This document shows, one piece after another, positions 20,099 through 41,132 of a stretch of DNA of 64,000 bases. The DNA lies in NCBI GenBank assembly GCA_902768365.1, contig CACXKV010000002.1:53978-117977 (forward strand), written 5' to 3'. The notes under the pieces are model-generated. The model ran no database searches. It had not been told where the DNA came from and worked only from the letters and a program-made list of their open reading frames with translations. The stretch is from an uncultured Bacteroidia bacterium. GTDB taxonomy: Bacteria > Bacteroidota > Bacteroidia > Bacteroidales > UBA932. Positions within the stretch are counted from its first letter, which is position 1. The number at the start of each line of letters is the position of its first letter. Both the position numbers and the translations under genes were made by a program.

Positions 20099-20712
20099 AC
20101 GCAGATCTCCGGAACTACGTAGAATCGGAAATCATCCCGCGCTACGCATCTTTCGACGAGGCGCACCGGGAAGACCACGCCCGCACGGTGATAGAGCAGT
20201 CGATGGCGCTGGCGGAGCATTATGATGTGGACCGCGACATGGTCTATGCCATCGCGGCTTTCCACGACACGGGCCTCTGCGAAGGGCGCGAGCGGCATCA
20301 TCTGGTATCCGGCCAGATCATCCGGCAGGATGCCCGACTCAAAGAATGGTTCAGCCCTGCTCAGATAGAAACCATGGCGCAGGCCGCGGAAGACCACCGG
20401 GCATCGTCCGACCACGAACCTCGCAGCATCTACGGCCGCATCGTGGCCGAGGCCGACCGCATCATCGACGGCGAAACCATAGTGCGGCGCACCATACAGT
20501 ACGGCCTCTCGCACTATCCGGAACTGGACCGTAAGGGCCACTGGGAGCGCATGTGCGCCCATCTCAAAGAGAAATATGATTACGGTGGATACCTGAAGCT
20601 GTGGATTCCCCAGTCTCCCAATGCCGCCCGCCTGGAGGACTTCCGCCAGAATCTGCGGAAACCAGGCTGGCTCCACGAACTGTTTGACCGGTACTACTGC
20701 GCTGACAGGTAG
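20095..20712 (+). CDS. HD-domain phosphohydrolase
   Basis: AHREDH..FHDTGL..HH..EDHRAS..AEADR; true start MNADL overlaps the lolD stop (ATGA). Confidence 0.88.
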
Positions 20713-20784
20713 CGGTTTACGTAGTTTTTTGAGTGGGCCTTGTGCGTGGCGGTAGCGGATGTAAACCGCTACCTGTCAGCGCAG
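20697..20784. repeat. palindromic element family A (intergenic copy)
   Basis: Perfect 24-bp arms CTGCGCTGACAGGTAGCGGTTTAC around a loop AGTTTTTTGAGTGGGCCTTGTGCGTGGCGGTAGCGGA. Confidence 0.9.
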
Positions 20785-23493
20785 CATGGCTTCCGCAACA
20801 TTCCACCCCTCCACATGCACCACCGGCTTAGCCGGCGCATCGCCACGCGCAACCTCCAGGATTACAGTCTTGGAGGCACCCGGCAGCAGGGTGAAATAAT
20901 TATCGGTATAGAAGGTGTACGGCACCGGCAGACCGTCATCGCCCAGCAGCAGCACCTCGTTGAAGAAGGCGATCTTGCCCGAAGTATTCTTCAGCGTTAC
21001 ATCGAAATAGAAATTCTCCTCATCTGAACGCTTCTTCACGCTGCTCTTCACCTTGGCCTTGGGCATGGATGCAAGCGACTCGAAGCCCGAAGCGCAAGGC
21101 CCGGTCAGCGTGCCCTCTTTATATCTGGCGGTGGACCTCCAATAGAAATTCTCGCTCAGAAGCTTGCCCTTCGCGTCCCTCACTTCGAGCGCCAGGAAGT
21201 GCACAGGGGTGAGTTTTTCCGGCAGGCGCAAGCTGATGGCATCACAGGCCACCCCATCTGCCTTCACATTCACTCCCCTCACCGTCCAGGTGGCCAGGTT
21301 GTTGCTGTTCAGGTCGTAGAGCCGCGCCACCACCTTCAGGTCTGTCAGGGCGGTCAGCATATCGTTATACACCGACACCGTATTCTTCTCGTAGTCGAAC
21401 ATCACGTGCACGGGCTCCAGCGCGTGCATGGTATGGAACAGGGAGGCAGTGGGGATCAGGTACCAGTCCCACATGTGGTTCTTTATCATGGGGATGGGGC
21501 TGGCGTGGCTCCAGAAGAGGGTGCCTGAGCAGAAGCGGTCGCCATATCCCAGCTTGTTGTAGTTCCAAACATCCCAGATGGCCTTCGAATTCATCGCGCT
21601 CAGCAGCTGGGTCTTCCAGCCGTATTCCTTGATGGAGTGCGACTCGCCATAGTTGTCCGCCAGGGCCTTCACGGTGGTGGTCACCTTGCCGAAGCCGCTG
21701 CCGTCCAGGTAGTCCCACACATACTGGTTCATCGGCCAGATCTCTTCCGGGCGAAGGAAGCGCTGCAGGGAGGTCCAGTGCGGCATTCCGGTGAAGCCGT
21801 ATTCGGGGTTGAAGCCGTTCACGCGGCTGCCGCGGGGGGATGCCTTGTCGAGATAGTGGAGCATGGGGTTCACCTGCACGTAAGGGCTTCCGTCGTGGAT
21901 GCCGTCGCATTCGCTCTGCTGCTGCCAGGGGCGCGTGCCGTCCAGTTTCTCGATCAGCTCGCGCGTGCCGCTCACCTCGGTACTCTCGTTGGATGCCACG
22001 TAGAACATCACGCAGGGGTGATTCCTCACCCGCTTGACGCTGGATTCCACGTTGGCAAAGTAGGTCGCCACGTCGTGAGGATGGCGGGTATCTCCGGTCA
22101 TGAAGAACTCCTCCCACACCATGAATCCGTACTCGTCGCAGAGCTGATGGAAGTAGTCGCTTTCCACTATGCCGCCGCCCCAGAGGCGGAGGAGGTTGAA
22201 TCCGCACTGCGCGCTCATACGGAGCACCGCCGCCATGCGCTTGTCGTTGTCTTTCAGCATCGCCTCCGGGATCCAGTTGCTGCCGCGGACGAAGATGGGC
22301 TTGCCGTTCACCACGAAGAGCTTGCTCTCGTCCGGGGTTTCGCGCGTGGCCACGACCTCGCGTATGCCGAAGGTGGTTGTGAGAGAATCGCTCAGCACGT
22401 CATCATCTTCGAACACGCTGATTTTCAGGGAGTAAAGAGGATGCTCACCCTTGCCGAGAGGCCACCAGAGCTGGGGGTTGTCGATGTGCAGGCTGCGGAA
22501 GCTCTTGGGCGAGAAGACCACTTCCTGCACCTCCTCGCGGTAGAGCTCCACCGTCTTTTCGAAGCGGGCGAAGGGCTTGTCGGCGCCGGGCGCGCAGATC
22601 TCTCCCAACACCCTGGCCTTGTGGGTCTTGGGGCTGTCTACATAGCGGCTGCCCACCTCCACGCTCACGGTCAGGTCGGCCGCATCGTAGTCCGGATGCG
22701 CCAGTTTTGTGCGCACGAAGGGATGCCTCACGGTGACTCCACCCGTGGAGTAGAGGGAGATGCTGCGCCAGATGCCGGTGTTGCGGTCGCGCACAGCATC
22801 CCAGAAGGTGAAGTCCCAGCCCACGCTCATCAGCATGGTGGAGTTCAGGCCAATGTTGCCGTCTCCTCCGTTATTGTATTCGCCGGGCGCGCCCCAGGTC
22901 TTCTTGCCGGGCCTGCCGGGGAAATCTACCGGATACACCAGCACCGCCAGCGCATTGCGTCCGCCGATGTTAGCGAATTCGGTGATGTCGATGTCGTCGT
23001 CCCGGAACATGCCGGTGAGGGTGCTGAACAGATGCCCGTTCACCCAGAACTCCGCGCGGTAGTTGATGCCCTCCGGGTGCAGCCAGACCTTCTTGCCCGC
23101 GTAGTCCGCGGGGATGTCGAACTCGGTGCGGAACCAGTAAGTGTAGAAACCGCGGCCGACCTCGTTGATGTCCGGGATGAGGCCCTTGGAGAGGCGGTTG
23201 TTATCGGAGAAATACGGGTCCGGGACAAGGCCGTTTTCCACCATGTTCGTGAGCACCGTGGCTGGCACCCGGGCCTTCATCCATGCGCTGTCGTCGAATC
23301 CGGGCTGGGAGATCTTCTCGGCCTGGCCGGCCTCGGAGATGTTGCACATGCGCCAGCTCTGCCCCTCGGCAGTGTCGAAGTAGATGCGGTCTTTCAGCCG
23401 GGCGTTGTTAGGGGAAGGGGCTGCGTTTAGGGTGATGGCCGCCAAAAGCAGGCCTGCGGTTAACAACAAACTGCGGAAAACGGTCTTTTTCAT
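20776..23493 (-). CDS. glycoside hydrolase family 2 (beta-mannosidase / exo-beta-glucosaminidase-like)
   Basis: Signal peptide, EGINYRAEFWVNG, NPQLWWPLG, FGIREV, NLLRLWGGG, RVRNHP..SNE. Confidence 0.88.
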   Translation of the reverse strand: MKKTVFRSLLLTAGLLLAAITLNAAPSPNNARLKDRIYFDTAEGQSWRMCNISEAGQAEKISQPGFDDSAWMKARVPATVLTNMVENGLVPDPYFSDNNRLSKGLIPDINEVGRGFYTYWFRTEFDIPADYAGKKVWLHPEGINYRAEFWVNGHLFSTLTGMFRDDDIDITEFANIGGRNALAVLVYPVDFPGRPGKKTWGAPGEYNNGGDGNIGLNSTMLMSVGWDFTFWDAVRDRNTGIWRSISLYSTGGVTVRHPFVRTKLAHPDYDAADLTVSVEVGSRYVDSPKTHKARVLGEICAPGADKPFARFEKTVELYREEVQEVVFSPKSFRSLHIDNPQLWWPLGKGEHPLYSLKISVFEDDDVLSDSLTTTFGIREVVATRETPDESKLFVVNGKPIFVRGSNWIPEAMLKDNDKRMAAVLRMSAQCGFNLLRLWGGGIVESDYFHQLCDEYGFMVWEEFFMTGDTRHPHDVATYFANVESSVKRVRNHPCVMFYVASNESTEVSGTRELIEKLDGTRPWQQQSECDGIHDGSPYVQVNPMLHYLDKASPRGSRVNGFNPEYGFTGMPHWTSLQRFLRPEEIWPMNQYVWDYLDGSGFGKVTTTVKALADNYGESHSIKEYGWKTQLLSAMNSKAIWDVWNYNKLGYGDRFCSGTLFWSHASPIPMIKNHMWDWYLIPTASLFHTMHALEPVHVMFDYEKNTVSVYNDMLTALTDLKVVARLYDLNSNNLATWTVRGVNVKADGVACDAISLRLPEKLTPVHFLALEVRDAKGKLLSENFYWRSTARYKEGTLTGPCASGFESLASMPKAKVKSSVKKRSDEENFYFDVTLKNTSGKIAFFNEVLLLGDDGLPVPYTFYTDNYFTLLPGASKTVILEVARGDAPAKPVVHVEGWNVAEAMLR

Positions 23494-23546
23494 ATTTTTG
23501 TTTTATTTTTGCAAGGTTAATGTCAGTGTTTTACAAATATAAGAAA

Positions 23547-24209
23547 ATGAAAGCGAAATTCCTTGCAGCTGCCTTGCTGATTATTGTCGCCTGCTCGCCT
23601 AAAGCCGGATGGACCCCGGCTGAACTAGATATTATTGCCAATCCTATTGCCGGCACCGCCCCGGCTCTTGCTGCGGATAGTACTGCAGCCGGTTCCGTCG
23701 CTGCCGCTCCTGAGATTCTGCGTGTGCTGACCATTGAAGATGAGGCCGATTCGCTGATACTGCGTACGCCCTGCGCAGACTTCACGCCGGAAATGCTGAG
23801 CTCGCCGGAATACGCTAGTTTGGCCAGGCTGATGATGGCCACTGTTACCGACCCTTCGGAAGATGGTGTAGGCATCGCAGGGCCCCAGGTGGGGATTTCG
23901 CGGCGAGTCGTGGCCGTGCAGCGCTTCGACAAGCCAGGCGAGCCCTTTGAGGTGTATCCAAATGTGCGTATCGTTGACCGGCGCGGCGATCTTTGCTCCG
24001 GCCCCGAAGGCTGCCTTTCTGTGCCCGGGCGCCGTGGTAACGTGCTGCGCTACAGGGATATAGACATACAGTATTCGTTAGTAGATCGCGACACCACCGA
24101 ACGCATCCATGGCTTCACCGCCGTCATCTTCCAACACGAATGCGACCACCTCGACGGTGTGCTGTATATAGATAAGGTTATACCAGGATCTTTGCAGGAG
24201 CGCAACTAA
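23547..24209 (+). CDS. def: peptide deformylase with N-terminal lipoprotein signal
   Basis: GVGIAGPQ, EGCLS, QHECDH motifs; signal MKAKFLAAALLIIVAC. Confidence 0.88.
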   Translation: MKAKFLAAALLIIVACSPKAGWTPAELDIIANPIAGTAPALAADSTAAGSVAAAPEILRVLTIEDEADSLILRTPCADFTPEMLSSPEYASLARLMMATVTDPSEDGVGIAGPQVGISRRVVAVQRFDKPGEPFEVYPNVRIVDRRGDLCSGPEGCLSVPGRRGNVLRYRDIDIQYSLVDRDTTERIHGFTAVIFQHECDHLDGVLYIDKVIPGSLQERN

Positions 24210-24228
24210 GTAAGTCAAGGCGGCATCT

Positions 24229-24360
24229 GCCGTTCCCTGCAACAATCTGGCAATCAACAGGTTACACCATAAGGGATGCCGAATATTCAGCATCCCTTTT
24301 TATTTAACCATTTACAAATCAGTTACTTATAAGGAACAGCCAAATAAGCGGGTTTATGGG
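24229..24360. repeat. 132-bp cruciform repeat, left of RAYT-1
   Basis: Imperfect direct repeat of 25411-25542; inner hairpin AAGGGATGCCGAATATTCAGCATCCCTT. Confidence 0.9.
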
Positions 24361-24364
24361 GACC

Positions 24365-25288
24365 TTACCGGGGAACTGCCGAATGAGCAAGTTTATGGGT
24401 GGGCCTACTGGGGTCTGGCAAATGGAGGAATTTTCGCATCTGGTCGGCAGAAGCATCCACCTTCGCATACAGTTTCCTGCTTATCTTAGGAATCAGTTCC
24501 GGAGGGAGCAAATCGTAATTGGGCCCTTCGTATCCTATTGCCCTGCTGTGTTTTATCAACTTATTATAAACTGAGTGATCGCCACAGTCATCATCCAGAT
24601 CATATTCATTTCCAGCAATATTCTCCACTACATCCAAAGCCTTGTCAAAAGAACCGAATATTTCCTCCAACTCATCGTAGCTCAAGAAGTTATACTTACA
24701 GACAATATAATCGATCACTTGCTGTTTTTCTTCAGGAGTCAGGCCGGTAAAGATTCTTCTCAAAGTCGCATAGCCCAGGTATTTCCCCTCTCTAAAAAAG
24801 ATATCGACAACCTTTAGGGCATCCCTTACTATATGCCGGCTGCGGCGCTTCACAAGTTTGTGCGAAAAAGGATTCGGATTATCCTTGTATGCAAGCAGAG
24901 TCCATCTGTTTTGTATCGCCAGCCTGCACATTTTTCCTGCCACTGGATTATTGAAGATATATGCAATACATGCAATTATCTTCTTCACCGCATGCTTCCC
25001 TGCCCGCCCGAATCTCCGATTGAAAACCGGCCCGGTTCGGTCGTATTCCGTATTGTACTCCCGGCTGAATATAGTAGCCAAGCGTATCTGAAATTTCTTT
25101 AGATCTGGCTCCGATATATCTTTGAACAAGGAGTGAATGTGATTGAACATGATGGAGAAAGCAAGGACGCATAATCCCATTTCCTTTACCAACACACTGT
25201 AAACAGTAAAAAACACCAGGCAATCCTCAACTCTGTAGAACAGCCCCCAGCCATTCCGGCCCTTCATGTACACATGTTTCGCTTTCAT
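24365..25288 (-). CDS. HUH/Y1 transposase-like nuclease (RAYT-like) 1
   Basis: KHVY..G..LF..ED, AFSIMFNHIH (HUH), AYIFNNPV (catalytic Tyr); AT-rich relative to its neighbours. Confidence 0.82.
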   Translation of the reverse strand: MKAKHVYMKGRNGWGLFYRVEDCLVFFTVYSVLVKEMGLCVLAFSIMFNHIHSLFKDISEPDLKKFQIRLATIFSREYNTEYDRTGPVFNRRFGRAGKHAVKKIIACIAYIFNNPVAGKMCRLAIQNRWTLLAYKDNPNPFSHKLVKRRSRHIVRDALKVVDIFFREGKYLGYATLRRIFTGLTPEEKQQVIDYIVCKYNFLSYDELEEIFGSFDKALDVVENIAGNEYDLDDDCGDHSVYNKLIKHSRAIGYEGPNYDLLPPELIPKISRKLYAKVDASADQMRKFLHLPDPSRPTHKLAHSAVPR

Positions 25289-25410
25289 GTTTTTTTTCCA
25301 CAAAAGAAGAAAATGCCGAAGTCAATGTCAATCAAATTTATGCATAGTGGATTTATTTTTAAGTTTGCGTATAGGGATAAATCTTTTGGCCGGCATAATA
25401 TCAAAAGGTG

Positions 25411-25542
25411 GCCGTTCCTGGCAACAGCCTGGCAGCCAGCAGATTACGCCATAAGGGATGCCGAAAATTCAGCATCCCTTATTATCTAACAATCTACAAA
25501 TCAGCTACTTACCGGGAATGGCCGGATGGGCAGGTTTCTGGT
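25411..25542. repeat. 132-bp cruciform repeat, right of RAYT-1
   Basis: Direct copy of 24229-24360 with hairpin TAAGGGATGCCGAAAATTCAGCATCCCTTA. Confidence 0.9.
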
Positions 25543-25551
25543 ATGCTTGCT

Positions 25552-25591
25552 GGAAACGGGAAACGGGAAACGGAGAACGGGGAACGGGGAA
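25552..25591. repeat. heptamer tandem repeat (GGAAACG)n, about 5.5 copies
   Basis: ggaaacg ggaaacg ggaaacg gagaacg gggaacg ggga. Confidence 0.85.
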
Positions 25592-25592
25592 T

Positions 25593-26231
25593 CTACGCGA
25601 TCCACACCAGCACGTGGCGGTCGAAAGTGATGTACTCCAGATCGAACTCCTCTTCGAAGCCATCCTTATTGATAAAAGTAGCCTCAAGTTCGCCCTCGCC
25701 CTTCAGGCGGAAGGCATCCACTTCGATCTGCTCGGCGAAGTCCACCTTGTACTGGCTCATCTTCTTATAGACGGCCTCTTTGGCGCACCAGTAAATGGCG
25801 AGCTGCTCGTTACGGTGATCGTCGTCCAGGTCGTCGATTTCATCTTCGGAAAGAGCCTTCTTTTCCACCGCGGAGAAATCGCGGTCCAGGCTCTCGCAGT
25901 CGATGCCCACATCGTCCAGGTCGTTCAGGATAACTGCGACATACTTTTCGGTATGGGTGATCGAGATATTGGTGGCGTTGTTTTCGATATAGGGTTTGCC
26001 GTTGTCGTGGTGCGAAAGATACACCTTTTCTTCGAACATGGCGTCCAGGAGGGCGCGCACGGCCAGTTTCTGCTTGCGCAGAGATTCACTTTTAATGAAT
26101 GAGATTTCTTCCAGTTCGTCGGAAGGGATGGAGGATAATGCTTTTAATTCTGCCTCAGTTTCAGTGATATGCCAAACACCGAGACGCGAGTGCGCGTCGT
26201 CGTCGAGGTCTTTTGTAAGAAATAGTGCCAT
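25593..26231 (-). CDS. 4'-phosphopantetheinyl transferase (Sfp-like)
   Basis: NGKP, ISITHT, VGIDCE, YWCAKEAVYK. Confidence 0.9.
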   Translation of the reverse strand: MALFLTKDLDDDAHSRLGVWHITETEAELKALSSIPSDELEEISFIKSESLRKQKLAVRALLDAMFEEKVYLSHHDNGKPYIENNATNISITHTEKYVAVILNDLDDVGIDCESLDRDFSAVEKKALSEDEIDDLDDDHRNEQLAIYWCAKEAVYKKMSQYKVDFAEQIEVDAFRLKGEGELEATFINKDGFEEEFDLEYITFDRHVLVWIA

Positions 26232-26324
26232 AAATAATTACAACATGCAAATATAATCAATTTTTAGATATCTAAAAAATATGTATCTTTGTGCTGCTTT
26301 AAGCGACTATACTCTTAATTCATC

Positions 26325-27311
26325 ATGAAATATCTAACTAACGAGAAATTGGTCATCGTCGGAGCAGGTGGAATGATAGGCTCCAACATGGCCCAGTCCG
26401 TGCTTATGCTCGGTCTCACCCCCAATGTATGCCTCTACGATATCTACGAGCCCGGCCTCAAGGGCGTGCTCGGAGAGATTGACCACTGCGCATTCGAAGG
26501 TGCAAACGTCACCGCAACCATCGATCCCGCCGAGGCATTCACCAACGCGAAATACATCATCTCATCCGGCGGCGCTCCCCGCAAGGAGGGCATGACCCGC
26601 GAGGATCTTCTCAAGGGCAACTGCCAGATCGCTGCCGAATTCGGCGACAACATCAAGAAGTACTGCCCCGATGTGAAGCACGTGGTGGTTATCTTCAATC
26701 CGGCAGATGTCACTGCCCTCACCGCCCTCATCCACTCCGGCCTGAAACCCGAGCAGCTCACCAGCCTCGCAGCCCTCGACAGCACCCGTCTGCAGGAAGC
26801 TCTCGCGCAGGAATTCGGCGTGCAGCAGTGCAAGGTCACCGGCGCCCACACCTACGGCGGACACGGTGAGGCCATGGCAGTTTTCGCCTCCCAGGTCAAG
26901 ATCGACGGCAAGCCCCTCGCAGAGATGAAGCTCAGCGAAGAGCGCTGGGCAGATATCAAGCTCCGCACCGTCCAGGGCGGTAGCAACATCATCAAGCTCC
27001 GCGGCCGCAGCTCCTTCCAGAGCCCTGCATATCAGGCAGTTAAGATGATCGAGGCCGCGATGGGCGGCGCCAAATTCACTTGGCCTGCAGGATGCTACGT
27101 GAACAACAAGGTGTTCCAGAACGTGATGATGGCAATGCCCACCATTATCGACAAGACCGGCGTTCACTTCACCGCTCCCAAGGGAACCGCAGAAGAGATG
27201 GCAGCCCTCAAGGCTTCCTACGAGCACCTCTGCAAGATGCGCGACGAGATCGTCTCCCTCGGCATCGTTCCTCCGGTGGCTGAATGGAAGAGCCTGAATC
27301 CGAATCTCTAG
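26325..27311 (+). CDS. mdh: malate dehydrogenase
   Basis: GAGGMIG, GGAPRKEGMTREDLLKGN, NPAD, LDSTR, GGHG. Confidence 0.93.
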   Translation: MKYLTNEKLVIVGAGGMIGSNMAQSVLMLGLTPNVCLYDIYEPGLKGVLGEIDHCAFEGANVTATIDPAEAFTNAKYIISSGGAPRKEGMTREDLLKGNCQIAAEFGDNIKKYCPDVKHVVVIFNPADVTALTALIHSGLKPEQLTSLAALDSTRLQEALAQEFGVQQCKVTGAHTYGGHGEAMAVFASQVKIDGKPLAEMKLSEERWADIKLRTVQGGSNIIKLRGRSSFQSPAYQAVKMIEAAMGGAKFTWPAGCYVNNKVFQNVMMAMPTIIDKTGVHFTAPKGTAEEMAALKASYEHLCKMRDEIVSLGIVPPVAEWKSLNPNL

Positions 27312-27314
27312 TCG

Positions 27315-27429
27315 CTCATGGCGGCTAAAGCTCTGTAAATCAGGGCAATAAATATAAGTCTCCCCTCTGAAAACAGAGGGGAGACTTATATTTAACTATC
27401 TGGAAATCAGGCCATTAGCCGCCATGGGC
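27315..27429. repeat. cruciform element / bidirectional terminator
   Basis: Outer stem CATGGCGGCTAA/TTAGCCGCCATG, 20-bp inner stem AAATATAAGTCTCCCCTCTG, two TAA-N5-TG-N3-ATCA boxes. Confidence 0.85.
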
Positions 27430-27438
27430 TGCCGACGG

Positions 27439-28065: not shown

Positions 28066-28339
28066 TTACAATCAAATAATCTTCTATTTGCGCGAGCGTG
28101 ATGTCGGAACTGATGAGGTACTCGATAATCTCTTCGTCCGAGGCGGCAGGGATGGCGGTCCGGTTAAGAACCAGATTGCCCACGAGCACCGCAAGCGCGA
28201 AGCACGCTGCAAGCGCGAGGTAAGGAGCGAATTTCTGCATCCGGCCGGGCTGCTTCTCCTGCGCAGGAATTTCCGAGAGTCTCGTGCGGAGATTCTCGAA
28301 GTAGCCGTCCGGAACTTTGTATTGGATTTTCTTACTCAT
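28058..28339 (-). CDS. putative anti-sigma factor (single TM)
   Basis: YKVPDGYFE motif plus a TM helix, downstream of the ECF sigma. Confidence 0.7.
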   Translation of the reverse strand: MSKKIQYKVPDGYFENLRTRLSEIPAQEKQPGRMQKFAPYLALAACFALAVLVGNLVLNRTAIPAASDEEIIEYLISSDITLAQIEDYLIVNE

Positions 28340-28373
28340 ACCGATTAATTAGATGTAAAACCGTTGCAAAAGT

Positions 28374-29118: not shown

Positions 29119-29127
29119 CGAAGCAGG

Positions 29128-32825: not shown

Positions 32826-32858
32826 ATTATAGGGCGCCGGACCGGCCGGCATCAAAAA

Positions 32859-34640
32859 TTAATCCAGTTTCAAAACTGCCATGAAGGCACTCTGGGGCAC
32901 CTGCACCTTGCCTATCTGGCGCATACGCTTCTTGCCCTCCTTCTGCTTCTCGAGCAGCTTGCGCTTGCGGGTCACGTCGCCGCCGTAGCACTTGGCGGTC
33001 ACATCCTTGCGCACCTGCTTCACCGTTTCGCGGGCGATTATCTTGGCCCCGATGGCCGCCTGCACGGGGATGTCGAACTGCTGGCGGGGGATCAGGTCCT
33101 TCAGCTTCACGCACATCTTCCGCCCGAAATCGTAGGCATTGTCCTCGTGGATGAGGGTGGAGAGGGCATCCGCCGGCTCGCCGTTCAGCAGTATATCCAG
33201 CTTCACCAGGCGCGCGCTGCGATAGCCTATAATGTGGTAGTCGAAGGAGGCATAACCCTTCGAGATGCTCTTGAGCTTGTCGTAGAAGTCGAACACTATC
33301 TCCGAAAGGGGCATGTCGTAGTTGAGCTCCACCCGGTCGGAAGTGATGTAGTGCTGGCTCACCAGGGTGCCGCGCTTGTCGAGGCAGAGCTTCATCACCG
33401 GCCCGAAGAATTCGGCCTTGGAGATTATCTGGGCACGGATGAACGGCTCTTCGATGTGGTCGATCAGAGTAGGGGCGGGCAGGCCGGACGGGTTGTGCAC
33501 GTCCAGGCATTCCCCCTGGGTGGTGTAGACCTTGTAGCTCACGTTCGGCACGGTGGTGATCACATCCATGTCGAACTCGCGGAAGAGGCGCTCCTGCACT
33601 ATCTCGAGGTGCAGCAGGCCGAGGAATCCGCAGCGGAAACCGCTTCCCAGTGCGAGGGAACTCTCCGGCTCGTAGACGAAGGACGCGTCGTTCAGCTGGA
33701 ACTTCTCCAGCACGGCCCGCAGCTCTTCGAATTTATCTGCCTGCACGGGGTACATGCCCGCGAACACCATGGGTTTCACCTCCTCGAATCCGGCGATGGC
33801 CTCGGCGCAGGGGTTCTCCTTGTCGGTGATGGTGTCGCCCACCTTCACCTCCGCGGCACTCTTGATGCCGCAGATGACATAGCCCACGTCCCCGCAGCCT
33901 ATCTCCTGGGTGGGCACAAGTTTCATCCTGAGTATCCCCAGCTCCTCCGCAACATAGTCCTGCCCGGTGTTGAAGAACTTCACCTGCTGGCCCCTGCGGA
34001 GGGTGCCGTTCTTGATCTTGAAGTAGGCGATGACCCCGCGGAAGGGGTTGAAGACCGAGTCGAAGATGAGGGCTTGGAGCGGTGCCTCCGGATCCCCTAC
34101 CGGGGCGGGGATGCGCTCGATGATAGCATCCAGGATGGGCTGCACACCTTCGCCGGTGCGGGCGGAGATGCGGAAGATGTCCTCCGGATCGCAGCCGATG
34201 AGGTCCACGATCTGGTCCGCCACCACATCCGGCTGCGCGGAATCCATATCTATCTTATTGAGCACGGGAATGATCTCGAGCCCATGGTCTATGGCCTGAT
34301 AGAGATTCGCAATCGTCTGAGCCTGAACACCTTGCGATGCGTCCACTACCAGCAGCGCGCCTTCGCAAGAGGCGATGGAGCGCGAGACTTCGTAGCTGAA
34401 GTCCACGTGGCCGGGAGTGTCGATCAGGTTGAGGATGTGGCCCTTGTACTGCATCTGGATGGCGTGGCTCTTGATGGTGATGCCCTTCTCGCGCTCCAGG
34501 TCCATGTCGTCCAGCACCTGCGCCTCCATATCCCGCTCACTCAGAGTCTGGGTGAGCTCGAGCAGACGGTCGGCCAGGGTGGATTTACCGTGGTCGATGT
34601 GCGCGATGATGCAGAAATTGCGTATGCGGTCCATTGTCAT
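32859..34640 (-). CDS. lepA: translation elongation factor 4
   Basis: [43 protein letters not shown]. Confidence 0.98.
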
Positions 34641-34725
34641 AGAAAGCAAAGATAGCAATTTCTTGCGAAACTGCTATCTTTGCTTTCCTTATTACCCTCC
34701 CTCGCTCCGCTCGGATACGAACGGA

Positions 34726-34956
34726 CTACGGAACAGGATCATAACCACTTCCACCCCAGGGATGGCAGCGCAGGATGCGCTTGAGCGAGAGCCAGAAGCC
34801 CTTCAGCGGGCCATACTTGCGGAAGGCCTCCAGGGCGTACTGGCTGCAGGTGGGGGTGAAGCGGCAGGTGGGGGGCTTGAGTGGCGAGATGCACAGCTGA
34901 TAGAATTTTATCAGCAGGATGAACGGTGCGGCCAGTATTTTCTTCAGCCACTTCAT
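34726..34956 (-). CDS. yidD: membrane protein insertion efficiency factor
   Basis: [27 protein letters not shown]. Confidence 0.95.
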
Positions 34957-35390
34957 GATTGTACACGTTCGAGTATTGCCGCCACCTCCGCACTTATGGT
35001 CGCGAAATCCGCAATCTCCGGAGAATTATACTGGAATAGAATATCCACCCCCGCAATCTTCCGCACCCGGTACGCCTCGCGGATCCGCCGCTTCAGCAGA
35101 TTCCGCTTCACCGCCCGCTTGAAAAACCTCTTCGGCACAGATATCAGTATCCGGCCTGCCCGCTCGCTGCCGGATACAGCAGCCTGGTCGGCAGTGCCGT
35201 TCACGGAAGTTTTTTGAGTGGGCTGGTGCTGAGCAGGAGGCGTGCAACCCTCCTGCGAACCCCCGGCAGCAAGCCAGCAGTAGCGGAAATGCCCCAACGC
35301 CCCCCATCGGCCATCGGCGAGAAGGGCAGCAATCGACTTCTTGCCGGACAGCCGCTCGGATTTACCCAGCGTGTTGCCCACCGAAGCCAT
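34953..35390 (-). CDS. rnpA: ribonuclease P protein component (with in-frame repeat insertion)
   Basis: [33 protein letters not shown]; adjacent to yidD. Confidence 0.9.
35190..35229. repeat. palindromic element family A (partial, inside rnpA)
   Basis: AGTGCCGTTCACGGAAGTTTTTTGAGTG identical to 40758-40785. Confidence 0.85.
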
Positions 35391-35392
35391 AA

Positions 35393-36127
35393 CTATTTGT
35401 TCTGCTGAAGATAAAGCTCAATAGCCCTGGCCACCGAAGGAGCCTCCGGAGTAGGACCTTTGATATCGATGGAAAGCCCGGCCTCCTCCATGGCAGGCAC
35501 GATACTCTTCCCCCATCCGGCGAACTTGATGCCCCCCTGCTTGAAAGAAGGGAAATTCTCCAACAGGCTCTTGACATCCGCCTGATTGTAAAGGGCGATG
35601 ATATCGTAGCTGGAGAGATCCAGATCGTGAAGGTCCTGCGTAACGCTCTTGACGAGTTCGGCCTCACTGTAATCCAGACCTGCCTTCGCCAGAAGGGAGG
35701 TCATGGCATCGGCACTGGCGCCTGCAGACTTGGTGACAAGGAACTTCTCCCCCTTATGCTTGGGGCCTATCAGCGCAACAACCGAAGAAGGGGTGCCGTC
35801 GCCGAAGAAAATTTTACGTTTGCGGTAAACTATGTGCTTCTGCAGATAGTTAGCCACCAGTTCGGTGGAGCAGAAATATTTCATGGTCTCGGGGACCTTG
35901 AAACGGAGCTCTTCTGCAAGTTTGAAGTAAGCGTCTATGGCATGGCGAGAAGAGAAAATAACGGCGGTATAGTCCGGGAGATTGATTCTCTGGTCGCGGA
36001 ACTCGCGGGAACTGAGCGCTTCTATCTTAAAGAAAGGACGGAACTCCAGTTCTGCTTCATATGCACCCTGCAGGGTTTCGTAGGCAGTCATCTTTGAAGG
36101 CGCCTGCTGTGATATAAGAATCCTCAT
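35393..36127 (-). CDS. hemD: uroporphyrinogen-III synthase family
   Basis: ILISQ, FRPF, YTAVIFSSRHAID, YLQKHIVYRKRKIF; located in the DUF4271-hemD-rnpA-yidD block. Confidence 0.8.
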   Translation of the reverse strand: MRILISQQAPSKMTAYETLQGAYEAELEFRPFFKIEALSSREFRDQRINLPDYTAVIFSSRHAIDAYFKLAEELRFKVPETMKYFCSTELVANYLQKHIVYRKRKIFFGDGTPSSVVALIGPKHKGEKFLVTKSAGASADAMTSLLAKAGLDYSEAELVKSVTQDLHDLDLSSYDIIALYNQADVKSLLENFPSFKQGGIKFAGWGKSIVPAMEEAGLSIDIKGPTPEAPSVARAIELYLQQNK

Positions 36128-36144
36128 AAATGTCAAATTCGCTT

Positions 36145-36846
36145 CTACAAAATCAACGCGGAAGCGACTAGCGCTCCGGCCGGTAGAAATTCAAGCCCGC
36201 AAAGGTACAAAAAAGTTGTGAATCCACCGCATTTTTGTTGTAAAATCTGCCCTTCACGAACGGCGGACAGCAACCACAAAGCGGCAAGTTCCACACTGAT
36301 TACCAGGCGGATAGCCTCGTCGGAGGCCTTGAACATATAGAGGATGCTGATGCTGAGCATCATCAGGATGGCGAAGCAGATAAAATAGTTGAGAATCCCG
36401 CGTGTGAGGGCACGCGTGGAATCCGAATCCAGCCTCAACCTGCGTCCCGGCAGGAGGGCATGCATGATGCGCCGGAAGATGAGGAAAGCCAGCACCACTC
36501 CGGCGAGTTCCCCGAAGTGCAGCCACGGCTCGGCCCATCCGGCCAGGAAGGCCGCATCATAGAGGCAATAACGGTCCGCCGCCACCAGGAAGGGCACGGC
36601 CAGCACGCGTGCGCAGAGATTCCGGGAGCGGGCGGTGCTCACACTGTGCTCAACCTCTATGTTTCCCCTGCTGCGGACCAGGCATCCCATCATGGCCGGC
36701 ATGAGTTTATATAGTTCGGGAAGGATAATAAGAATGAGGGCGGCACAGGCTATGAGCATCCAGGCATGCACCGGGGCATCCGCCCAGGCCGCAGGCAGTG
36801 CCGCGGCCGGACGCTCCAAACTCAGGTGCAGTGTGCCGAAATCCAT
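36145..36846 (-). CDS. DUF4271-like membrane protein
   Basis: Multiple TM segments, FLYLCGLEFLP C-terminal motif, gene context. Confidence 0.7.
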   Translation of the reverse strand: MDFGTLHLSLERPAAALPAAWADAPVHAWMLIACAALILIILPELYKLMPAMMGCLVRSRGNIEVEHSVSTARSRNLCARVLAVPFLVAADRYCLYDAAFLAGWAEPWLHFGELAGVVLAFLIFRRIMHALLPGRRLRLDSDSTRALTRGILNYFICFAILMMLSISILYMFKASDEAIRLVISVELAALWLLSAVREGQILQQKCGGFTTFLYLCGLEFLPAGALVASALIL

Positions 36847-36847
36847 C

Positions 36848-37195
36848 TCAGTTACCGCGTTTGGCGTTATATCCCATCGTGGTGAGGAGAGCTACAAGCT
36901 TGTCCCTCAGATCCCCCTGTATGGTTATTTCTCCGTCTTTGGCCGTGCCGCCTACCCCGCATTTTGTCTTGAGGGCCTTGGCCAGGGCGGCAAGATCCTC
37001 GTTTTTGCCCACGAAGCCCTTCACCAGCGTCACCTGCTTGCCGGCACGCTGGCGGCGGTCGATGGCCACTATGAGGCGCTGCTTGGCGGGCGGAAGGGTG
37101 TCCGGCTCAACCGTTGCCGCGGTCTGGTATTGAAAGTCCGGATTGGTGGAATAAACCACCCCCAGACGCTGCTTCCAGTCGTTGTCGTTCTTCAT
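36848..37195 (-). CDS. SUI1/YciH translation initiation factor
   Basis: VVYSTNPDF, RAGKQVT, LKTKCGVGG, IQGD. Confidence 0.92.
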   Translation of the reverse strand: MKNDNDWKQRLGVVYSTNPDFQYQTAATVEPDTLPPAKQRLIVAIDRRQRAGKQVTLVKGFVGKNEDLAALAKALKTKCGVGGTAKDGEITIQGDLRDKLVALLTTMGYNAKRGN

Positions 37196-37242
37196 AAATG
37201 CAAATATAGTCATTTCGCGGGAAATGACTATATTTGTAAGCT

Positions 37243-40200
37243 ATGACAGAAAAGAAGTTCAAACTGTGGAACAGGATAGCCGCGGCTTTCGCTTTCGTGG
37301 TATCCGCGTTCACATACCTCAGCACCATAGAGCCCACCGCATCCTTCTGGGACTGCGGCGAGTTCATCGCATCTTCATATAAACTCGAAGTCGGGCATCC
37401 TCCGGGAAACCCCACCTTCCAGGTGCTCGCGCGCATTTTCACCCTCTTCGGGGACAATATGCACGCCGCGGTGCTGGTGAACGCCATGAGCGCACTGTGC
37501 TCGGCCCTTACCATCCTATTCCTCTACCTTACCATAGTCTGGTTCGCAAAGAGGATGACTAAACGGCTGTCTGTTGCCGTGATCGGCTCCGGCCTCGTGG
37601 GAGCCCTCGCCTACTGCTTCTCAGACACATTCTGGTTCTCCGCAGTCGAAGGCGAAGTCTACGCCATGAGCTCGCTCGTCACCGCCCTCGTCTTCTGGAT
37701 TATGACCCTCTGGTACGACAGGGCCGACGAGCCTCACGCCAACCGCTGGATCGTGCTGATAGCCTTCATCATGGGCCTCAGCATAGGCATCCATCTGCTT
37801 AACCTGCTCATGATCCCCGCCCTGGTGTTCATGTTCTACTACCGCCGGCGCGAAGACGGCCCCTTCACCGTCAAGGAGCTCTTCAAGATCCTTCTCATCG
37901 GCGGAGCCATCCTCGGGATCATGGTGTTCATGGTCATCCCCTGGCTGCCCAAGATAGCCGCATACGTGGATCTCTTCTTCGTGAACGTGCTCGGCCTGCC
38001 CTACAACAGCGGTGCCGCCTTCTTCCTGGTGGCGGTGCTGGGTCTCTGCTTCTGGGGCCTCTTCCGCACCCTGGACAAGGGAAAGGTGTTCTGGAACACC
38101 GCCCTGCTGTGCCTCACCACCATCATCGTGGGCTTCTCCATCTTCAGCGTGGATATCATCCGCTCCTGCGCCAAGACCCCTACGAACGAGTACCAGCCGG
38201 ACAATGCCTTCACTTTGGTGCGCTACCTCACCCGTGAGCAGTACGGCAGCACCCCGCTCGTCTACGGGCAGTACTACGACGCGCCCTTCCAGGTGAAGGA
38301 AAACAAGTACTGGACCCCTCTGGACGGCAAGTACAAGAAGGTGGACGGCCCCGGCGAGGCTAAGTACGATGCCTCCGGCAAGATGCTCTTCCCCCGCATG
38401 TGGAGCGGTGTGGATCCCCAGAGCAAGGATATTTACAAGATATACACCCGCGGCAAGGGAAAGAAGATCAAGGGGGCCTCATCGCCCAAGCCTAGCATGG
38501 GCGCGAACCTCGCCTACTTCTTCGACTTCCAGCTGGGATGGATGTACTGGCGCTACTTCATGTGGAACTTCGCAGGGCGCCAGAACGATGTGCACAGCCC
38601 CTCCCCGGGCAACATCTTCCACGGCAACTGGGAGAGCGGCATCAAGGTCCTGGACGACTGGAGGCTGGGAGACCAGAGCAATGCTCCCTCCGTGCTCGCC
38701 GACAATAAAGGCAAGAACCACTACTATCTCCTCCCCTTCCTCCTGGGCCTGATAGGGCTTTTCTTCCAGTTCGGGAAGGATAAGCGTGGATGCTGGCTGA
38801 ACTTCTTGATGTTCTTCATGACCGGCATAGCGGTGGTTATCTACCTCAACATGCCCCCGTTCCAGGTGCGCGAGAGGGATTATGCCTTCGCGGGATCCTT
38901 CTACTTCTTTACCGTGTGGATAGGCCTCGGCGTGCTCGGCCTCTACGACCTCGTGGACGAGACCCTCAACAGGAAATTCAGCACTTCGCTGGGCGCTTTC
39001 CTCACCGCGGTCTGCCTCTGCGTGCCCGCACTGATGGCAGCCGAGAACTGGGACGACCACGACCGTTCCGGCCGCCGTACCGCACCCGAACTCGGAGCCA
39101 ACTACCTCAAGTCCGTCGGCCCCCAGGGCGTGCTCGTGACCCATGGCGACAACGACACCTTCCCTCTCTGGTATGCCCAGGAGGTGGAGAATGTGCGCAC
39201 AGACGTGCGCATCGCCAACACATCGCTTCTCGGCACCGACTGGCACATAGACCAGATGAAGTGGGCCTGCAACGAGAGCAAGCCCCTGCCTCTGACGGTG
39301 GGCCCGGAGCAGTATCTCTACGGCACCAACGAATACATCCCCATCTACGATCAGCGCGGCCGCGTGATGAGTATCGCAGATGTGATGACCCTCTTCAAGC
39401 ACCCTCAGGTGAAGGTGCAGATGAGTTCCGGCCGCAGGTACGATTACATCGCTTCCCGCAAGATATCGGTTCCCGTGAACAAGGAGAACGCTCTGGCGAG
39501 CGGGATAGTGCCTCCGGCGATGGCCGGCCGCATAGCAGATACCATAGTCCTGGAGATTCCTGCCAACAAAGACTACCTCACCAAGCCCGAGCTCTTCGTG
39601 CTGGACTTCCTTTCCAACTATCAGTGGGACAGGCCCTTCAACGTGCTCAGTAACGGTGGAGACATTAATATAGGCATCAAGGACTATCTGATGAGCGACG
39701 GCTTCTCGGCCAAGCTGGTGCCGTTCAAGAACCGGCCTTCCTCCAGTTCCTTCGGACTGGTGGATCCGGACGAGCTCTGGCACTACATGACCGAAGTCTA
39801 CTCTTTCGATGCCCTGAAGGCTCCGGGCTGGTTCGTGGACTACCAGAACTGCTATACTTTCCTGGCAGTGATGGGAATACGCAGCCTGCACGTGAACTGC
39901 GCCAGTTCCTTCCTGGGATGCGGCCAGCCTGAGCGTGCCCTGGCGATGCTGGACCAGAGCGAGGCTGCCATGGTCAACTTCCCCGTCTGCTCCATCCCTC
40001 TTGGATTCAGCGGCAACGACTACATGGTGGTGAAGACCGTGGATCTGTACTATAAACTGGGGCATGGCGAGAAGGGTCGCGAGCTGGCCGTGAAGTATGC
40101 CGACGAGGTGCTTGCCGCCGCCGCTTTCTATCTTCAGTTCTATGCCTTTGCCGAGGATGAATTCGAGCTCTGCGGCAACTATATCTACTATCTGTCCGAC

Positions 40201-40287
40201 GTGCTGGAGCAGGGTGGAGAGAAGGAGCTTGGAAAGCAGATAGAGAAGAGATTCTCGGATTTGGTTGAATCCGCAACCGCCAAGTAA
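37243..40287 (+). CDS. DUF2723 (TMEM260-like GT-C glycosyltransferase) membrane protein
   Basis: SFWDCGEFI, VGHPPG, AVEGEVYA, RERDYA, GDNDTFPLWY. Confidence 0.9.
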   Translation: MTEKKFKLWNRIAAAFAFVVSAFTYLSTIEPTASFWDCGEFIASSYKLEVGHPPGNPTFQVLARIFTLFGDNMHAAVLVNAMSALCSALTILFLYLTIVWFAKRMTKRLSVAVIGSGLVGALAYCFSDTFWFSAVEGEVYAMSSLVTALVFWIMTLWYDRADEPHANRWIVLIAFIMGLSIGIHLLNLLMIPALVFMFYYRRREDGPFTVKELFKILLIGGAILGIMVFMVIPWLPKIAAYVDLFFVNVLGLPYNSGAAFFLVAVLGLCFWGLFRTLDKGKVFWNTALLCLTTIIVGFSIFSVDIIRSCAKTPTNEYQPDNAFTLVRYLTREQYGSTPLVYGQYYDAPFQVKENKYWTPLDGKYKKVDGPGEAKYDASGKMLFPRMWSGVDPQSKDIYKIYTRGKGKKIKGASSPKPSMGANLAYFFDFQLGWMYWRYFMWNFAGRQNDVHSPSPGNIFHGNWESGIKVLDDWRLGDQSNAPSVLADNKGKNHYYLLPFLLGLIGLFFQFGKDKRGCWLNFLMFFMTGIAVVIYLNMPPFQVRERDYAFAGSFYFFTVWIGLGVLGLYDLVDETLNRKFSTSLGAFLTAVCLCVPALMAAENWDDHDRSGRRTAPELGANYLKSVGPQGVLVTHGDNDTFPLWYAQEVENVRTDVRIANTSLLGTDWHIDQMKWACNESKPLPLTVGPEQYLYGTNEYIPIYDQRGRVMSIADVMTLFKHPQVKVQMSSGRRYDYIASRKISVPVNKENALASGIVPPAMAGRIADTIVLEIPANKDYLTKPELFVLDFLSNYQWDRPFNVLSNGGDINIGIKDYLMSDGFSAKLVPFKNRPSSSSFGLVDPDELWHYMTEVYSFDALKAPGWFVDYQNCYTFLAVMGIRSLHVNCASSFLGCGQPERALAMLDQSEAAMVNFPVCSIPLGFSGNDYMVVKTVDLYYKLGHGEKGRELAVKYADEVLAAAAFYLQFYAFAEDEFELCGNYIYYLSDVLEQGGEKELGKQIEKRFSDLVESATAK

Positions 40288-41132
40288 TGAGACTGATACG
40301 GAATTTGGCTCTGCTGCTGGCCGGGATGCTTGTCCTGGCCGGCTGCAAGGGTAGCGCACCCCTGATTGGCATTTCCTGCGGATGGGACGGTGGGCGCATC
40401 GACGTGAGTGATGCCTATGCCTTATCCGTTCGTGCCGCCGGCGGGATTCCGGTAGTGCTGCCTCCGGTGCTTTCTATGGAGGAGGCCGCTTCTGTTCTGG
40501 GCAAAGTGGATGCACTGATTCTCACCGGGGGTGAGGATGTGGATCCGGCCCGCTATGGCGAGGCGGTGCTGAATGCCACGGTCGAGGTGAACGGCGCGCG
40601 GGACACTTCAGATTTCTATCTGGCAACCGAGGCACTGCGCATGGGATTGCCGATTCTCGGCATCTGCCGCGGCGGGCAGCTGATGAACGTGGTGCTGGGA
40701 GGGTCGCTTTATCAGGATTTGCCGACTTGCATCGGCAGCGAGGCAGATGGCGGCAGTAGTGCCGTTCACGGAAGTTTTTTGAGTGAGCCCGTGCGTGGCG
40801 GTAGCGGAGTGAACGGCACCACTGCCGCCATCGCCCACCGGCAAAGCGAGCCGGACGGAGTGGGAACACATATGATCTACATTGAAGCCGGCTCGCGGCT
40901 CCATGAAATCCTGGGCGCCGACTCGCTGATGGTCAACTCCTTCCATCACCAGGCGGTCAAAGACCCCGGGGCCGGCGTGCGTGTAGTCGCCCGCGCGGCC
41001 GACGGAGTGGTCGAAGCCTGGGAATACGACAGCATCCTCTGCGTCCAGTTCCACCCCGAACTCCTCTACGCCCGCGGCGGCAACTCCACCTTCCTTCCTA
41101 TCTTCGAAGACCTCGTTGCTCGCGCACGGTAG
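40287..41132 (+). CDS. gamma-glutamyl-GABA hydrolase / peptidase C26 family, lipoprotein signal
   Basis: LTGGEDVDP, GICRG.Q, VNSFHHQAV, VQFHPE; lipobox LAGC. Confidence 0.9.
   Translation: MRLIRNLALLLAGMLVLAGCKGSAPLIGISCGWDGGRIDVSDAYALSVRAAGGIPVVLPPVLSMEEAASVLGKVDALILTGGEDVDPARYGEAVLNATVEVNGARDTSDFYLATEALRMGLPILGICRGGQLMNVVLGGSLYQDLPTCIGSEADGGSSAVHGSFLSEPVRGGSGVNGTTAAIAHRQSEPDGVGTHMIYIEAGSRLHEILGADSLMVNSFHHQAVKDPGAGVRVVARAADGVVEAWEYDSILCVQFHPELLYARGGNSTFLPIFEDLVARAR
40746..40832. repeat. palindromic element family A (87 bp, in-frame in C26 gene)
   Basis: 24-bp arms GATGGCGGCAGTAGTGCCGTTCAC / GTGAACGGCACCACTGCCGCCATC around the family A loop. Confidence 0.9.

Follow-up and report, generated by a model that had tools for sequence, protein, structure and literature searches.

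A translated hairpin repeat of about 87 nt, in frame in housekeeping genes of one rumen Bacteroidales group

Family A copies in the window and their host genes

The window, a stretch of 64,000 nt of DNA from an uncultured Bacteroidales bacterium, contains two full copies (20697-20784 and 40746-40832) and one truncated copy (35190-35223) of a hairpin repeat that we call family A. The first full copy provides the stop codons of an HD-domain gene and of a GH2 glycosidase gene, the second is translated within a gene for a Peptidase_C26/class-I glutamine amidotransferase, and the truncated copy lies in rnpA. The features are as follows.

19405-20712, plus strand: HD-domain gene, its final codons and stop inside the left arm of copy 1
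20697-20720, plus strand: copy 1, left arm, 24 nt, holding the TAG stop of the HD-domain gene
20721-20760, plus strand: copy 1, loop, 40 nt, with the box 1 core (AGTTTTTTGAG) at 20723-20733 and box 2 (GCGTGGCGGTAGCGGA) at 20744-20759
20761-20784, plus strand: copy 1, right arm, holding the TGA stop of the GH2 gene, which is on the minus strand
20776-23493, minus strand: GH2 glycosidase gene, its final codons and stop inside the right arm of copy 1
34953-35390, minus strand: rnpA (RNase P protein), host gene of the truncated copy
35190-35223, plus strand: truncated copy, with the left arm at 35190-35204, box 1 at 35205-35218 and the beginning of the loop centre
40287-41132, plus strand: Peptidase_C26/class-I glutamine amidotransferase gene, host of copy 2, the insert being residues 154-182
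40746-40769, plus strand: copy 2, left arm, read as DGGSSAVH within the C26 peptidase
40770-40808, plus strand: copy 2, loop, 39 nt, with box 1 at 40770-40783 and box 2 at 40793-40808; sense-frame peptide GSFLSEPVRGGSG
40809-40832, plus strand: copy 2, right arm, read as VNGTTAAI

The initial annotation had reported a loop repeated at 20721-20760 and 40770-40808, and this repetition is far above expectation: the first half of the loop (17 nt) has three matches in the window against none in 100 shuffles, and the second half (18 nt) two exact matches against a shuffle mean of 0.04. The 24-bp arms, described there as perfectly complementary in one copy and with a single mismatch in the other, indeed show a complementarity of 100% in copy 1 (20697-20720 with 20761-20784) and of 96%, with one A/C mismatch, in copy 2 (40746-40769 with 40809-40832). 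Both full copies fold into structures much more stable than those of shuffled sequences (z-scores of -6.5 to -9.4). When folding was used to look for structure within the loop, the result was not better than that of shuffled sequence.

The copy at 40746-40832 is 87 nt long and in frame, and it encodes exactly the peptide that had been quoted. Its 29 residues are missing from 11 orthologues, and in the AlphaFold model of the C26 protein the only segment with a pLDDT below 50 corresponds to it (residues 151-182). The partial copy announced in rnpA is also present, as a left arm and box 1 translated antisense; box 2 and the right arm are absent, and an unrelated small hairpin comes next. The RnpA region that carries it is different in each close relative.

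Distribution of family A across genomes

Family A is a translated hairpin repeat family of about 87 nt, found in frame in housekeeping genes of one rumen Bacteroidales group. The 2-Mb genome (G000) holds seven full copies, of which five are in frame, in ileS, truA, tldD and the genes of the C26 peptidase and a PBP4-type peptidase. The host identities were assigned by Pfam (ileS, truA, C26, S13/PBP4 and TldD), and the host ORFs continue through the copies. About 50 further copies were found in ∼14 related rumen MAGs. The dispersed hairpin family with a conserved loop that had been proposed from the window is thus real: it occupies ∼23 distinct sites in ∼14 species, with 3-14 copies per genome, and is present in 3 of the 151 sampled genomes of the genus. 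Its tolerance in frame in essential genes was confirmed as well, for ileS and rnpA, with empty sites in orthologues. The core genes affected include ileS, rnpA, tldD and miaA.

A search for phage or viral carriage gave no match to family A in viral contigs, and no boxes were found in the genome outside family A elements. A CRISPR-like array was considered for G016 (core-32 nt-core) and rejected, the arrangement being a 72-nt tandem duplication with identical 'spacers'.

Two loop boxes are near-invariant

The conserved part of the loop consists of the two boxes only and not of the whole 40 nt, so that the conserved loop of the initial annotation holds for the boxes but not for the loop centre, which is as variable as the flanks. 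Over 12 orthologous sites, variable columns amount to 35/112 in the loop centre, 84/288 in the arms and 1753/6124 in the flanks (each ∼30%). The corresponding values are 6/168 for box 1 and 3/192 for box 2 (9/360 together), which puts box variability 10-15 times below that of the adjoining coding DNA at sites predating the species split, with 20 of the 30 box positions predetermined by the search pattern behind most copies; the remaining 10 positions per site (120 columns) contain all nine variable columns, that is ∼7.5% versus 29% in the flanks. In terms of information content, the boxes reach 2.0 bits and the arm positions 0.1-1.1 bits.

This conservation holds whichever way the element lies, extends over several reading frames and includes intergenic copies. 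The boxes thus appear to be constrained at the DNA level, by a putative factor; this is partly shown by the data. The term 'recognition sequence' stays interpretative; no partner protein was found. In truncated copies the remaining box letters are still intact, which selection on a complete two-box site would leave unexplained.

Arms remain paired through two-sided changes

At least two Watson-Crick pair types occur in 29 of the 132 inner arm pairs compared within orthologous sites, and 88.7% of the cells are paired. Orthologous copies differ through mirrored indels and symmetric arm extensions. The arms had been called co-evolving and exchangeable. They do stay complementary through two-sided changes, but these, given the mirrored indels and the flips of whole elements, need not reflect selection on structure; the two latter features suggest that the palindrome undergoes internal template switching or conversion. 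Selection on RNA pairing was set aside since the arm mismatches, judged by eye and hence in a weak test, have no G-T enrichment on either strand. 'Exchangeable' was an overstatement: the arms at different sites share a weak consensus, roughly GGCGGCAGTGCCGTTCAC / GTGAACGGCAC.., and judged from these sequences they descend from a common ancestral arm and are not arbitrary. The outer arm parts appear to have been remodelled locally.

Empty sites and insertion footprint

Besides the C26 orthologues, an empty site was found for tldD in three relatives, and at the L045 site G093 has a copy where G000 has none. In C26 and tldD the insertion added a clean 87 nt with both arms; the possibility that arms are copied from the target on insertion was accordingly rejected for these two sites, where both arms are extra sequence. 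The ileS gene has a net gain of only ∼57 nt, and there the element's outer right arm agrees with native sequence, which suggests that these arms may later have grown into the flanks. The 'empty' ileS site of G170 is, on our reading of the alignment, itself a quasi-palindrome. Neither a target-site duplication nor a target motif could be defined by comparing filled with empty sites.

Every genic copy has a length that is a multiple of three and lacks stops in the host frame, in either orientation, and the 40-nt loop variant is used precisely where a 39-nt loop would create a stop. Sites have been gained, lost and truncated between close relatives. Flank identity at orthologous sites does not increase towards the element, making recent transfer unlikely; recent horizontal spread together with the flanks was rejected on the same ground. 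No near-identical pair of copies was seen at different sites, and current mobility is thus unsupported.

Some shared sites are occupied by family B and others by nothing. In ileS, miaA and a third gene, the same position carries family A or family B depending on the species, and at the third the outer arms are homologous while the centres differ between the two families. The sharing of sites with family B and the flipping in place described below were absent from the initial annotation. The PBP4 copy of G093 has a 41-nt hairpin nested in its loop.

Flipping in place

Of the 13 shared sites, 5 carry the element in one orientation in some species and in the other orientation in others, and flipped or not it leaves the host frame open. 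In tldD both orientations are open and encode unrelated peptides. On the tree of the tldD flanks the two orientations are intermixed, with one empty site nested among filled ones, and about 2-3 flips have occurred per roughly one substitution per site. The tldD copies of both orientations have common, site-specific loop ends (CGAAG..GCGAG), with variation in the loop centres that broadly follows the tree, and when the loop turns, so does an asymmetric mismatch located 12-17 nt inside the arms. Two near-identical genomes agree in orientation (L071/L073/L117). An assembly error behind the flips is unlikely, since sister species agree, the asymmetric mismatch turns together with the loop and the ORF is open both ways.

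Search for a partner enzyme

No transposase or other partner protein was found for family A. RAYT-like genes, recognized through weak matches to NF047646, are present in 113/151 genomes of the genus versus 3/151 for family A. None was flanked by family A in a REPtron-like arrangement, and the element-rich genomes G172 and G173 yielded no match for the RAYT-like paralogue adjoining the C26 gene. A specific RAYT-like partner was rejected by co-occurrence, for which both paralogues of the window fail. We also looked in five genomes for a long autonomous form with a gene between box 1 and box 2, and saw none: box 1 and box 2 were separated by ∼23 nt or occurred unpaired, and on no contig did they lie kilobases apart. 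Those unpaired boxes that were inspected proved to be chance matches or truncated copies; some others carry box 1 variants. In Rfam 15, the only matches at the gathering score were the tRNAs of the window, with no ribozyme or other family for the element, which has generic hairpin (miRNA-precursor) matches far under the threshold.

Comparison with known palindromic repeats

The Rickettsia palindromic elements RPE-1 to RPE-10 (Ogata et al., summarised in PMC10969869) are short dispersed palindromes, many of them in frame in unrelated housekeeping genes, where read-through adds a peptide stretch that the protein fold accommodates; the rest lie between genes. In-frame insertion is known for RPEs and for intragenic REPs (PMC10969869, PMC3733652). 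Family A resembles the RPEs as a dispersed palindrome, in frame in protein-coding genes (5 of the 7 full copies of G000), with orthologues that lack the insert. However, it belongs to another phylum, the Bacteroidota, and to the rumen, and it is 87 nt long with a low copy number, whereas RPEs have about 100-150 nt. Moreover, each RPE family is described as having a conserved peptide in one frame, whereas family A copies vary in the strand and frame in which they are read, the tldD orientations giving unrelated peptides, and what is conserved are two DNA boxes in the loop. The relation would accordingly be one of analogous behaviour and not of membership.

REPs and REPINs (PMC3733652, PMC3337134, PMC2817692) are likewise hairpin-forming repeats that are sometimes intragenic and encode 20-30 residues; the family A genomes are rich in distant RAYT-like HUH genes, and box 2 includes a GTAG tetranucleotide. 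Nevertheless, REP/REPIN stems are conserved and the loop or spacer varies, which is the reverse of family A. Their GTAG or CGTC tag stands at the foot of a 20-40 bp hairpin, the GTAG of family A within the loop, 4 nt ahead of the 3′ arm, and their copies number tens to hundreds as opposed to 3-14, with no RAYT gene flanked. MITEs, as derivatives of TIR transposons, have conserved terminal inverted repeats, a target-site duplication and a related full-length IS; in family A the arms are unconserved, no duplication is definable and no long version was seen in five genomes. Site-specific invertible segments combine conserved inverted repeats, bound by a dedicated recombinase, with frequent switching; family A does flip, but its repeats differ by site and the flips are rare on the tree.

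In the origins and nick sites of HUH enzymes (rolling-circle Rep, relaxase), a conserved single-stranded loop sits on a variable but paired stem. Family A would share this architecture by analogy; however, the HUH origin loops have about 9-12 nt and lie beside a rep gene or on a replicon, whereas that of family A has 39-40 nt and is within chromosomal coding sequence, with no linked enzyme gene. Finally, template switching produces multi-base compensatory changes and loop inversions (PMC8794818) and also homogenises and expands the arms of inverted repeats (PMC13100816). Such quasi-palindrome mutation with small loop inversions (PMC8794818, PMC13100816, PMC5453318) could account for two-sided stem changes, mirrored indels, arm growth and inversion in place. 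It is, however, a process and not an element family, and leaves the dispersal to ∼23 sites and the invariance of the boxes unexplained.

Discussion

Taken together, family A is probably an old, low-copy, non-autonomous palindromic insertion element of the RPE/REPIN-like kind, confined to one rumen Bacteroidales clade. The unit would comprise ∼87 nt, as a 24-nt arm, a 39- or 40-nt loop and a second 24-nt arm, and since 87 nt equal 29 codons the reading frame is kept on insertion. Surviving copies would be those in tolerant places, such as disordered surface loops of housekeeping proteins, gene ends and spacers, the genic ones presumably being translated through. Once resident, the arms may act as a short inverted repeat within which template switching or conversion during replication transfers changes from one arm to the other. 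This arm-to-arm copying would yield double 'compensatory' substitutions and mirrored indels, and the same process could extend the arms into the flanks and, now and then, flip or delete the whole element. The boxes GGAAGTTTTTTGAG and GCGTGGCGGTAGCGGA appear near-invariant in DNA whichever strand or frame is read, which is partly shown, and most likely represent the binding or cleavage site of a putative trans-acting DNA enzyme. The numerous RAYT-like HUH nucleases of these genomes are obvious, unproven candidates.

A point against a purely selfish reading is that there is no obvious reason for box conservation in copies resident since before the species split. If a host protein, involved for instance in replication, repair or the organisation of the nucleoid, recognised the boxes as DNA on a hairpin or cruciform, host selection would keep each resident copy intact. 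Low box variability at sites older than the split, maintained across orientations, reading frames and intergenic copies, would then be expected, and recent spread is indeed unsupported by flank identity. We consider such a host function unlikely nonetheless: a genome has merely 3-14 copies and no boxes outside them, sites are gained, lost and truncated among close relatives, family B or nothing can take the same positions, and the family is limited to ∼14 species and 3/151 sampled genomes of the genus. A further reading, tentative and less likely than not, sees in the hairpins not passive junk but translated, frame-neutral DNA cassettes whose boxes are under purifying selection in every resident copy. 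The agent of this selection would act on the hairpin once extruded and could be either a host factor or a DNA enzyme specific for the structure; the positions in essential genes would then persist as 'landing pads', with flips, losses and re-occupation by family A or B over evolutionary time.

The mobile unit could also be the loop, a 40-nt cassette entering the apex of pre-existing hairpins in either orientation and overwriting older centres, so that loops would look young and arms old and site-specific. The positions shared by families A and B in ileS, miaA and the third gene, with homologous outer arms at the last, agree with this, as do the hairpin nested in the PBP4 loop of G093, the occurrence of both orientations at a single site and the quasi-palindromic 'empty' ileS site of G170, as the alignment reads. 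However, the site-specific loop ends and tree-like centres of tldD fit evolution in place, the asymmetric arm mismatch turns with the loop, the arms of different sites have a common consensus and the C26 and tldD inserts are clean 87-nt units with both arms; we regard a mobile loop as quite improbable. Removal of the insert during expression, whether the RNA is processed and re-ligated or the ribosome bypasses it as in T4 gene 60 and the mitochondrial byp elements, is very improbable indeed. The host gene's reliance on removal would keep the boxes conserved, as they are in essential genes, GGA codons stand at both loop ends (read from the copy 2 sequence), and the long stem draws the insert ends together. 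Nevertheless, the frame-keeping of all genic copies, stop-free in either orientation and with a 40-nt variant that avoids a stop, would be superfluous if the insert were removed. Moreover, flipped copies would give the reverse-complement RNA, the boxes are kept in intergenic copies as well, and an Rfam match to a ribozyme or other family is absent.

'Selfish DNA inside proteins' of the RPE type has so far mainly been viewed as a Rickettsia oddity, and our literature search found no description of RPE-type in-protein elements for Bacteroidota. Family A affects core genes of abundant rumen bacteria, and its inserts distort marker-gene alignments and can mimic frameshifts or misassemblies in MAGs. 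Its unusual features are two near-invariant loop boxes, which can be read on either strand, and in-place flips that spare the host frame. The family thus offers a natural system for the evolution of palindromes by template switching and for the absorption of arbitrary 29-residue loops by proteins.

Family A in the window and its genome

Our analysis bore out the initial annotation for two full copies of the hairpin repeat (family A), in arm coordinates, complementarity and loop lengths. In copy 1, fully complementary 24-bp arms (20697-20720 and 20761-20784) enclose a 40-nt loop, and in copy 2 the arms (40746-40769 and 40809-40832) have a single A/C mismatch and enclose a 39-nt loop. The loop halves have three and two matches in the window versus essentially 0 in shuffled sequence. 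The full copies fold into one long hairpin from either strand (z-scores -6.5 to -9.4), and the loop folded alone shows no more structure than chance. The partial third copy is indeed present in rnpA, but extends only over 35190-35223, with the left arm and the first box and nothing else. The genome containing the window (G000; 1.97 Mb, 55% G+C, 28 contigs, 88% complete) holds seven full copies besides this fragment.

Full family A copies in G000 (C numbers are contigs)
C1:46795-46881, ileS, antisense reading
C2:24228-24328, truA, antisense reading
window 40746-40832, C26 peptidase, sense reading
C17:6418-6518, S13/PBP4 peptidase, antisense reading
C19:17748-17848, tldD/pmbA, antisense reading
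C7:39854-39953, upstream of uvrB, intergenic
window 20697-20784, between convergent HD-domain and GH2 genes, intergenic

With all genomes taken together, about two-thirds of the ~23 distinct sites, as judged by a crude longest-ORF criterion, lie inside long open frames that continue through the element. At copy 1, the stop codons of the HD-domain and GH2 genes both fall within the arms, one gene ending per arm. In the two relatives compared (loci L108 and L179), both genes stop before the element, which lies between the native stops; this indicates that the G000 palindrome replaced the last codons and stops of both genes. A subfamily with TTTAC-type inner arms also carries stop codons in the arms and is located at gene ends or in spacers.

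Host range

Of 151 genomes sampled from the genus, a covariance model trained on eight copies detected family A in 3. An exact-pattern scan with one genome per species found ~48 copies in ~14 MAGs; eleven further matches elsewhere lacked arms and were discarded as chance matches. The MAG titles are Bacteroidales or Bacteroidia with a single exception, and most samples come from the rumen or reticulum of cattle, buffalo, yak or sheep. The exception, L090 (LVAP01000154.1), is 1.7 kb long and was assigned to 'Clostridiales bacterium Firm_10'. Its family A flanks match Bacteroidales locus L066, and the contig is probably mis-binned. No family A was found in the viral contigs and phage records scanned, and no Rfam family matches it. 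One copy (L002 1456-1617, G016:C39) lies in a tandem duplication with a 72-nt period and 2.2 units, and neighbouring tandem or partial copies also occur in L104, L113, L115 and L069.

Empty sites and tolerance of the insert

Alignment of the C26 peptidase delimited its insert as proposed, 11 orthologues (43-51% identical) lacking exactly the 29 residues. In the AlphaFold model built with that alignment (mean pLDDT 83.9), the sole segment predicted below 50 is a coil at residues 151-182, coincident with the insert. The tldD insert, a clean gain of ~87 nt, is missing from the outgroups and from the related genome G170. For RnpA, each of five relatives has a different sequence at the insert site, making it a hot spot; the G000 copy there is truncated. 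Other truncated family A copies were also seen. The RnpA variable region (window 35150-35290; loci L172-L176) falls between GHFRYCWL and RILISVPKR. A PSSQKNAHQ-like peptide recurs among the RnpA inserts and at RnpA C-termini; its source is a separate repeat that carries a box 1-like box, GTTTTTCTG, in its DNA.

Conservation of the boxes and in-place flipping

The loop is repeated as the initial annotation had it, but its conservation is confined to two boxes, GGAAGTTTTTTGAG and GCGTGGCGGTAGCGGA, 9-10 variable bases apart. The boxes carry 2.0 bits/position versus 0.1-1.1 bits/position in the arms. The arms had been thought exchangeable; their weak shared consensus shows instead that they are diverged descendants of a single arm, not arbitrary sequences.

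Variable columns summed over 12 orthologous sites
Box 1: 6/168
Box 2: 3/192
Loop centre: 35/112
Arms: 84/288
Flanks (mostly coding): 1753/6124

A caveat is that the search pattern fixed 20 of the 30 box positions beforehand; all nine variable box columns lie in the 10 unfixed positions per site (120 columns), i.e. ~7.5% versus 29% in the flanks. Flank identity is ~75-92% and does not increase toward the element, making recent transfer unlikely. Within the tldD ingroup no mutated boxes were seen (eight species intact, one empty, one unreadable at a contig end). The boxes are conserved whichever strand is read, across several frames and also in copies between genes, and peptide selection therefore does not account for them; judged from these alignments, they appear to be constrained at the DNA level.

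Comparison of flanks for all copies revealed opposite orientations at 5 of 13 sites common to different species: tldD (4 versus 4), miaA, a third gene, the L103/L121 site, and the copy 1 site versus L108. An asymmetric mismatch, conserved 12-17 nt inside the arms, is inverted together with the loop, and thus the inverted segment takes in the inner arms. In the tldD flank tree, orientations are intermixed and the empty G170 site is nested among filled ones (support 100/97), a pattern that takes no fewer than two flips and one loss, or else several gains. The tldD frame stays open in both orientations, giving unrelated peptides. The 39-nt loop has no stop in frame 0 of either strand; in tldD, the copies carry the 40-nt variant and so avoid a TAG that would arise in their frame from a 39-nt loop.

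Probable origin of arm covariation and apparent re-use of hairpin positions

In the eight-copy alignment, 20 of 24 arm pairs show both-sided changes, and the covariation score (0.54 versus 0.25 shuffled) drops when the pairing is slid. Same-site inherited copies, a stronger test, have at least two Watson-Crick pair types at 29 of 132 inner pair positions, with 88.7% of cells paired; the arms thus co-evolve, as had been claimed, keeping their complementarity through changes at fixed sites. Relative to the related genome G093, the G000 C26 copy carries 3 extra nt in each arm, inserted at mirrored positions, and orthologous PBP4 and C26 copies differ by symmetric arm extensions of 9-21 nt. The ileS copy adds a net ~57 nt to the empty site and its outer right arm matches native sequence, as though the palindrome had extended into the flanks. 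According to published work, template switching can yield loop inversions and compensatory changes of several bases (PMC8794818), and can homogenise and expand inverted-repeat arms (PMC13100816). From the mirrored indels, the extensions and these published effects, we infer that template switching, rather than selection on an RNA stem, would drive the arm covariation, giving a plausible explanation for both covariation and flipping.

A different hairpin family, family B (core GCAAAGGGCCCGTC..GGTACGGGCATTGC), occupies exactly the positions that family A holds in other species in ileS, miaA and a third gene.

Family B hairpins
G000:C1 ~13970-14070
G000:C1 258595-258694
window 47070-47146
window 47799-47875
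ileS locus L183 (G174)
ileS locus L186 (G093)

The ileS site has family A in some species (in G171 with a variant box 1), family B in G174 and G093 in opposite orientations, and neither in G170 and G167. At miaA and the third site, G093 has family A versus family B in G000. Hairpin positions thus seem to be re-used, which keeps in play a less likely alternative to a whole hairpin arriving as one element, namely that the 40-nt loop is itself a mobile unit inserting into pre-existing hairpins. This exchange between families speaks for it, as do the third site, where the outer arms are homologous and the centres differ, and the G093 orthologue of the G000 PBP4 copy (L054/L062, G093:C26:12500-12639), where a 41-nt GC-rich hairpin is nested mid-loop with both boxes intact. 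At the 'empty' ileS site of G170 (L184), imperfect arms of ~12 nt flank TCC and form a quasi-palindrome, which may be what was left when an element lost its centre, or a hairpin predating any insertion.

Mobilising partner and relation to known repeats

Two window ORFs, 24365-25303 (-) and 41339-42259 (-), weakly match the REP-associated tyrosine transposase (RAYT) model (E = 4.6e-8 and 3.7e-5, below the curated cut-off) and have no Pfam match. About nine such distant RAYT-like (HUH tyrosine transposase-like) genes occur in the 2 Mb of G000, on contigs C1, C4, C7, C9 and C16 as well as in the window; within the genus, 113 of 151 genomes have the family, with several copies each and in-frame stops in some copies. 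None flanks a family A copy, two genomes with 8-14 family A copies yielded no match to the paralogue that lies next to the C26 gene, and we found no long form of the element in the five genomes searched for it.

Literature searches found no published description of such an element in Bacteroidota. Family A lacks the defining features of REP/REPIN and of MITE families. Its behaviour matches that of Rickettsia palindromic elements (PMC10969869), a likeness of behaviour only, and that of intragenic REPs (PMC3733652).
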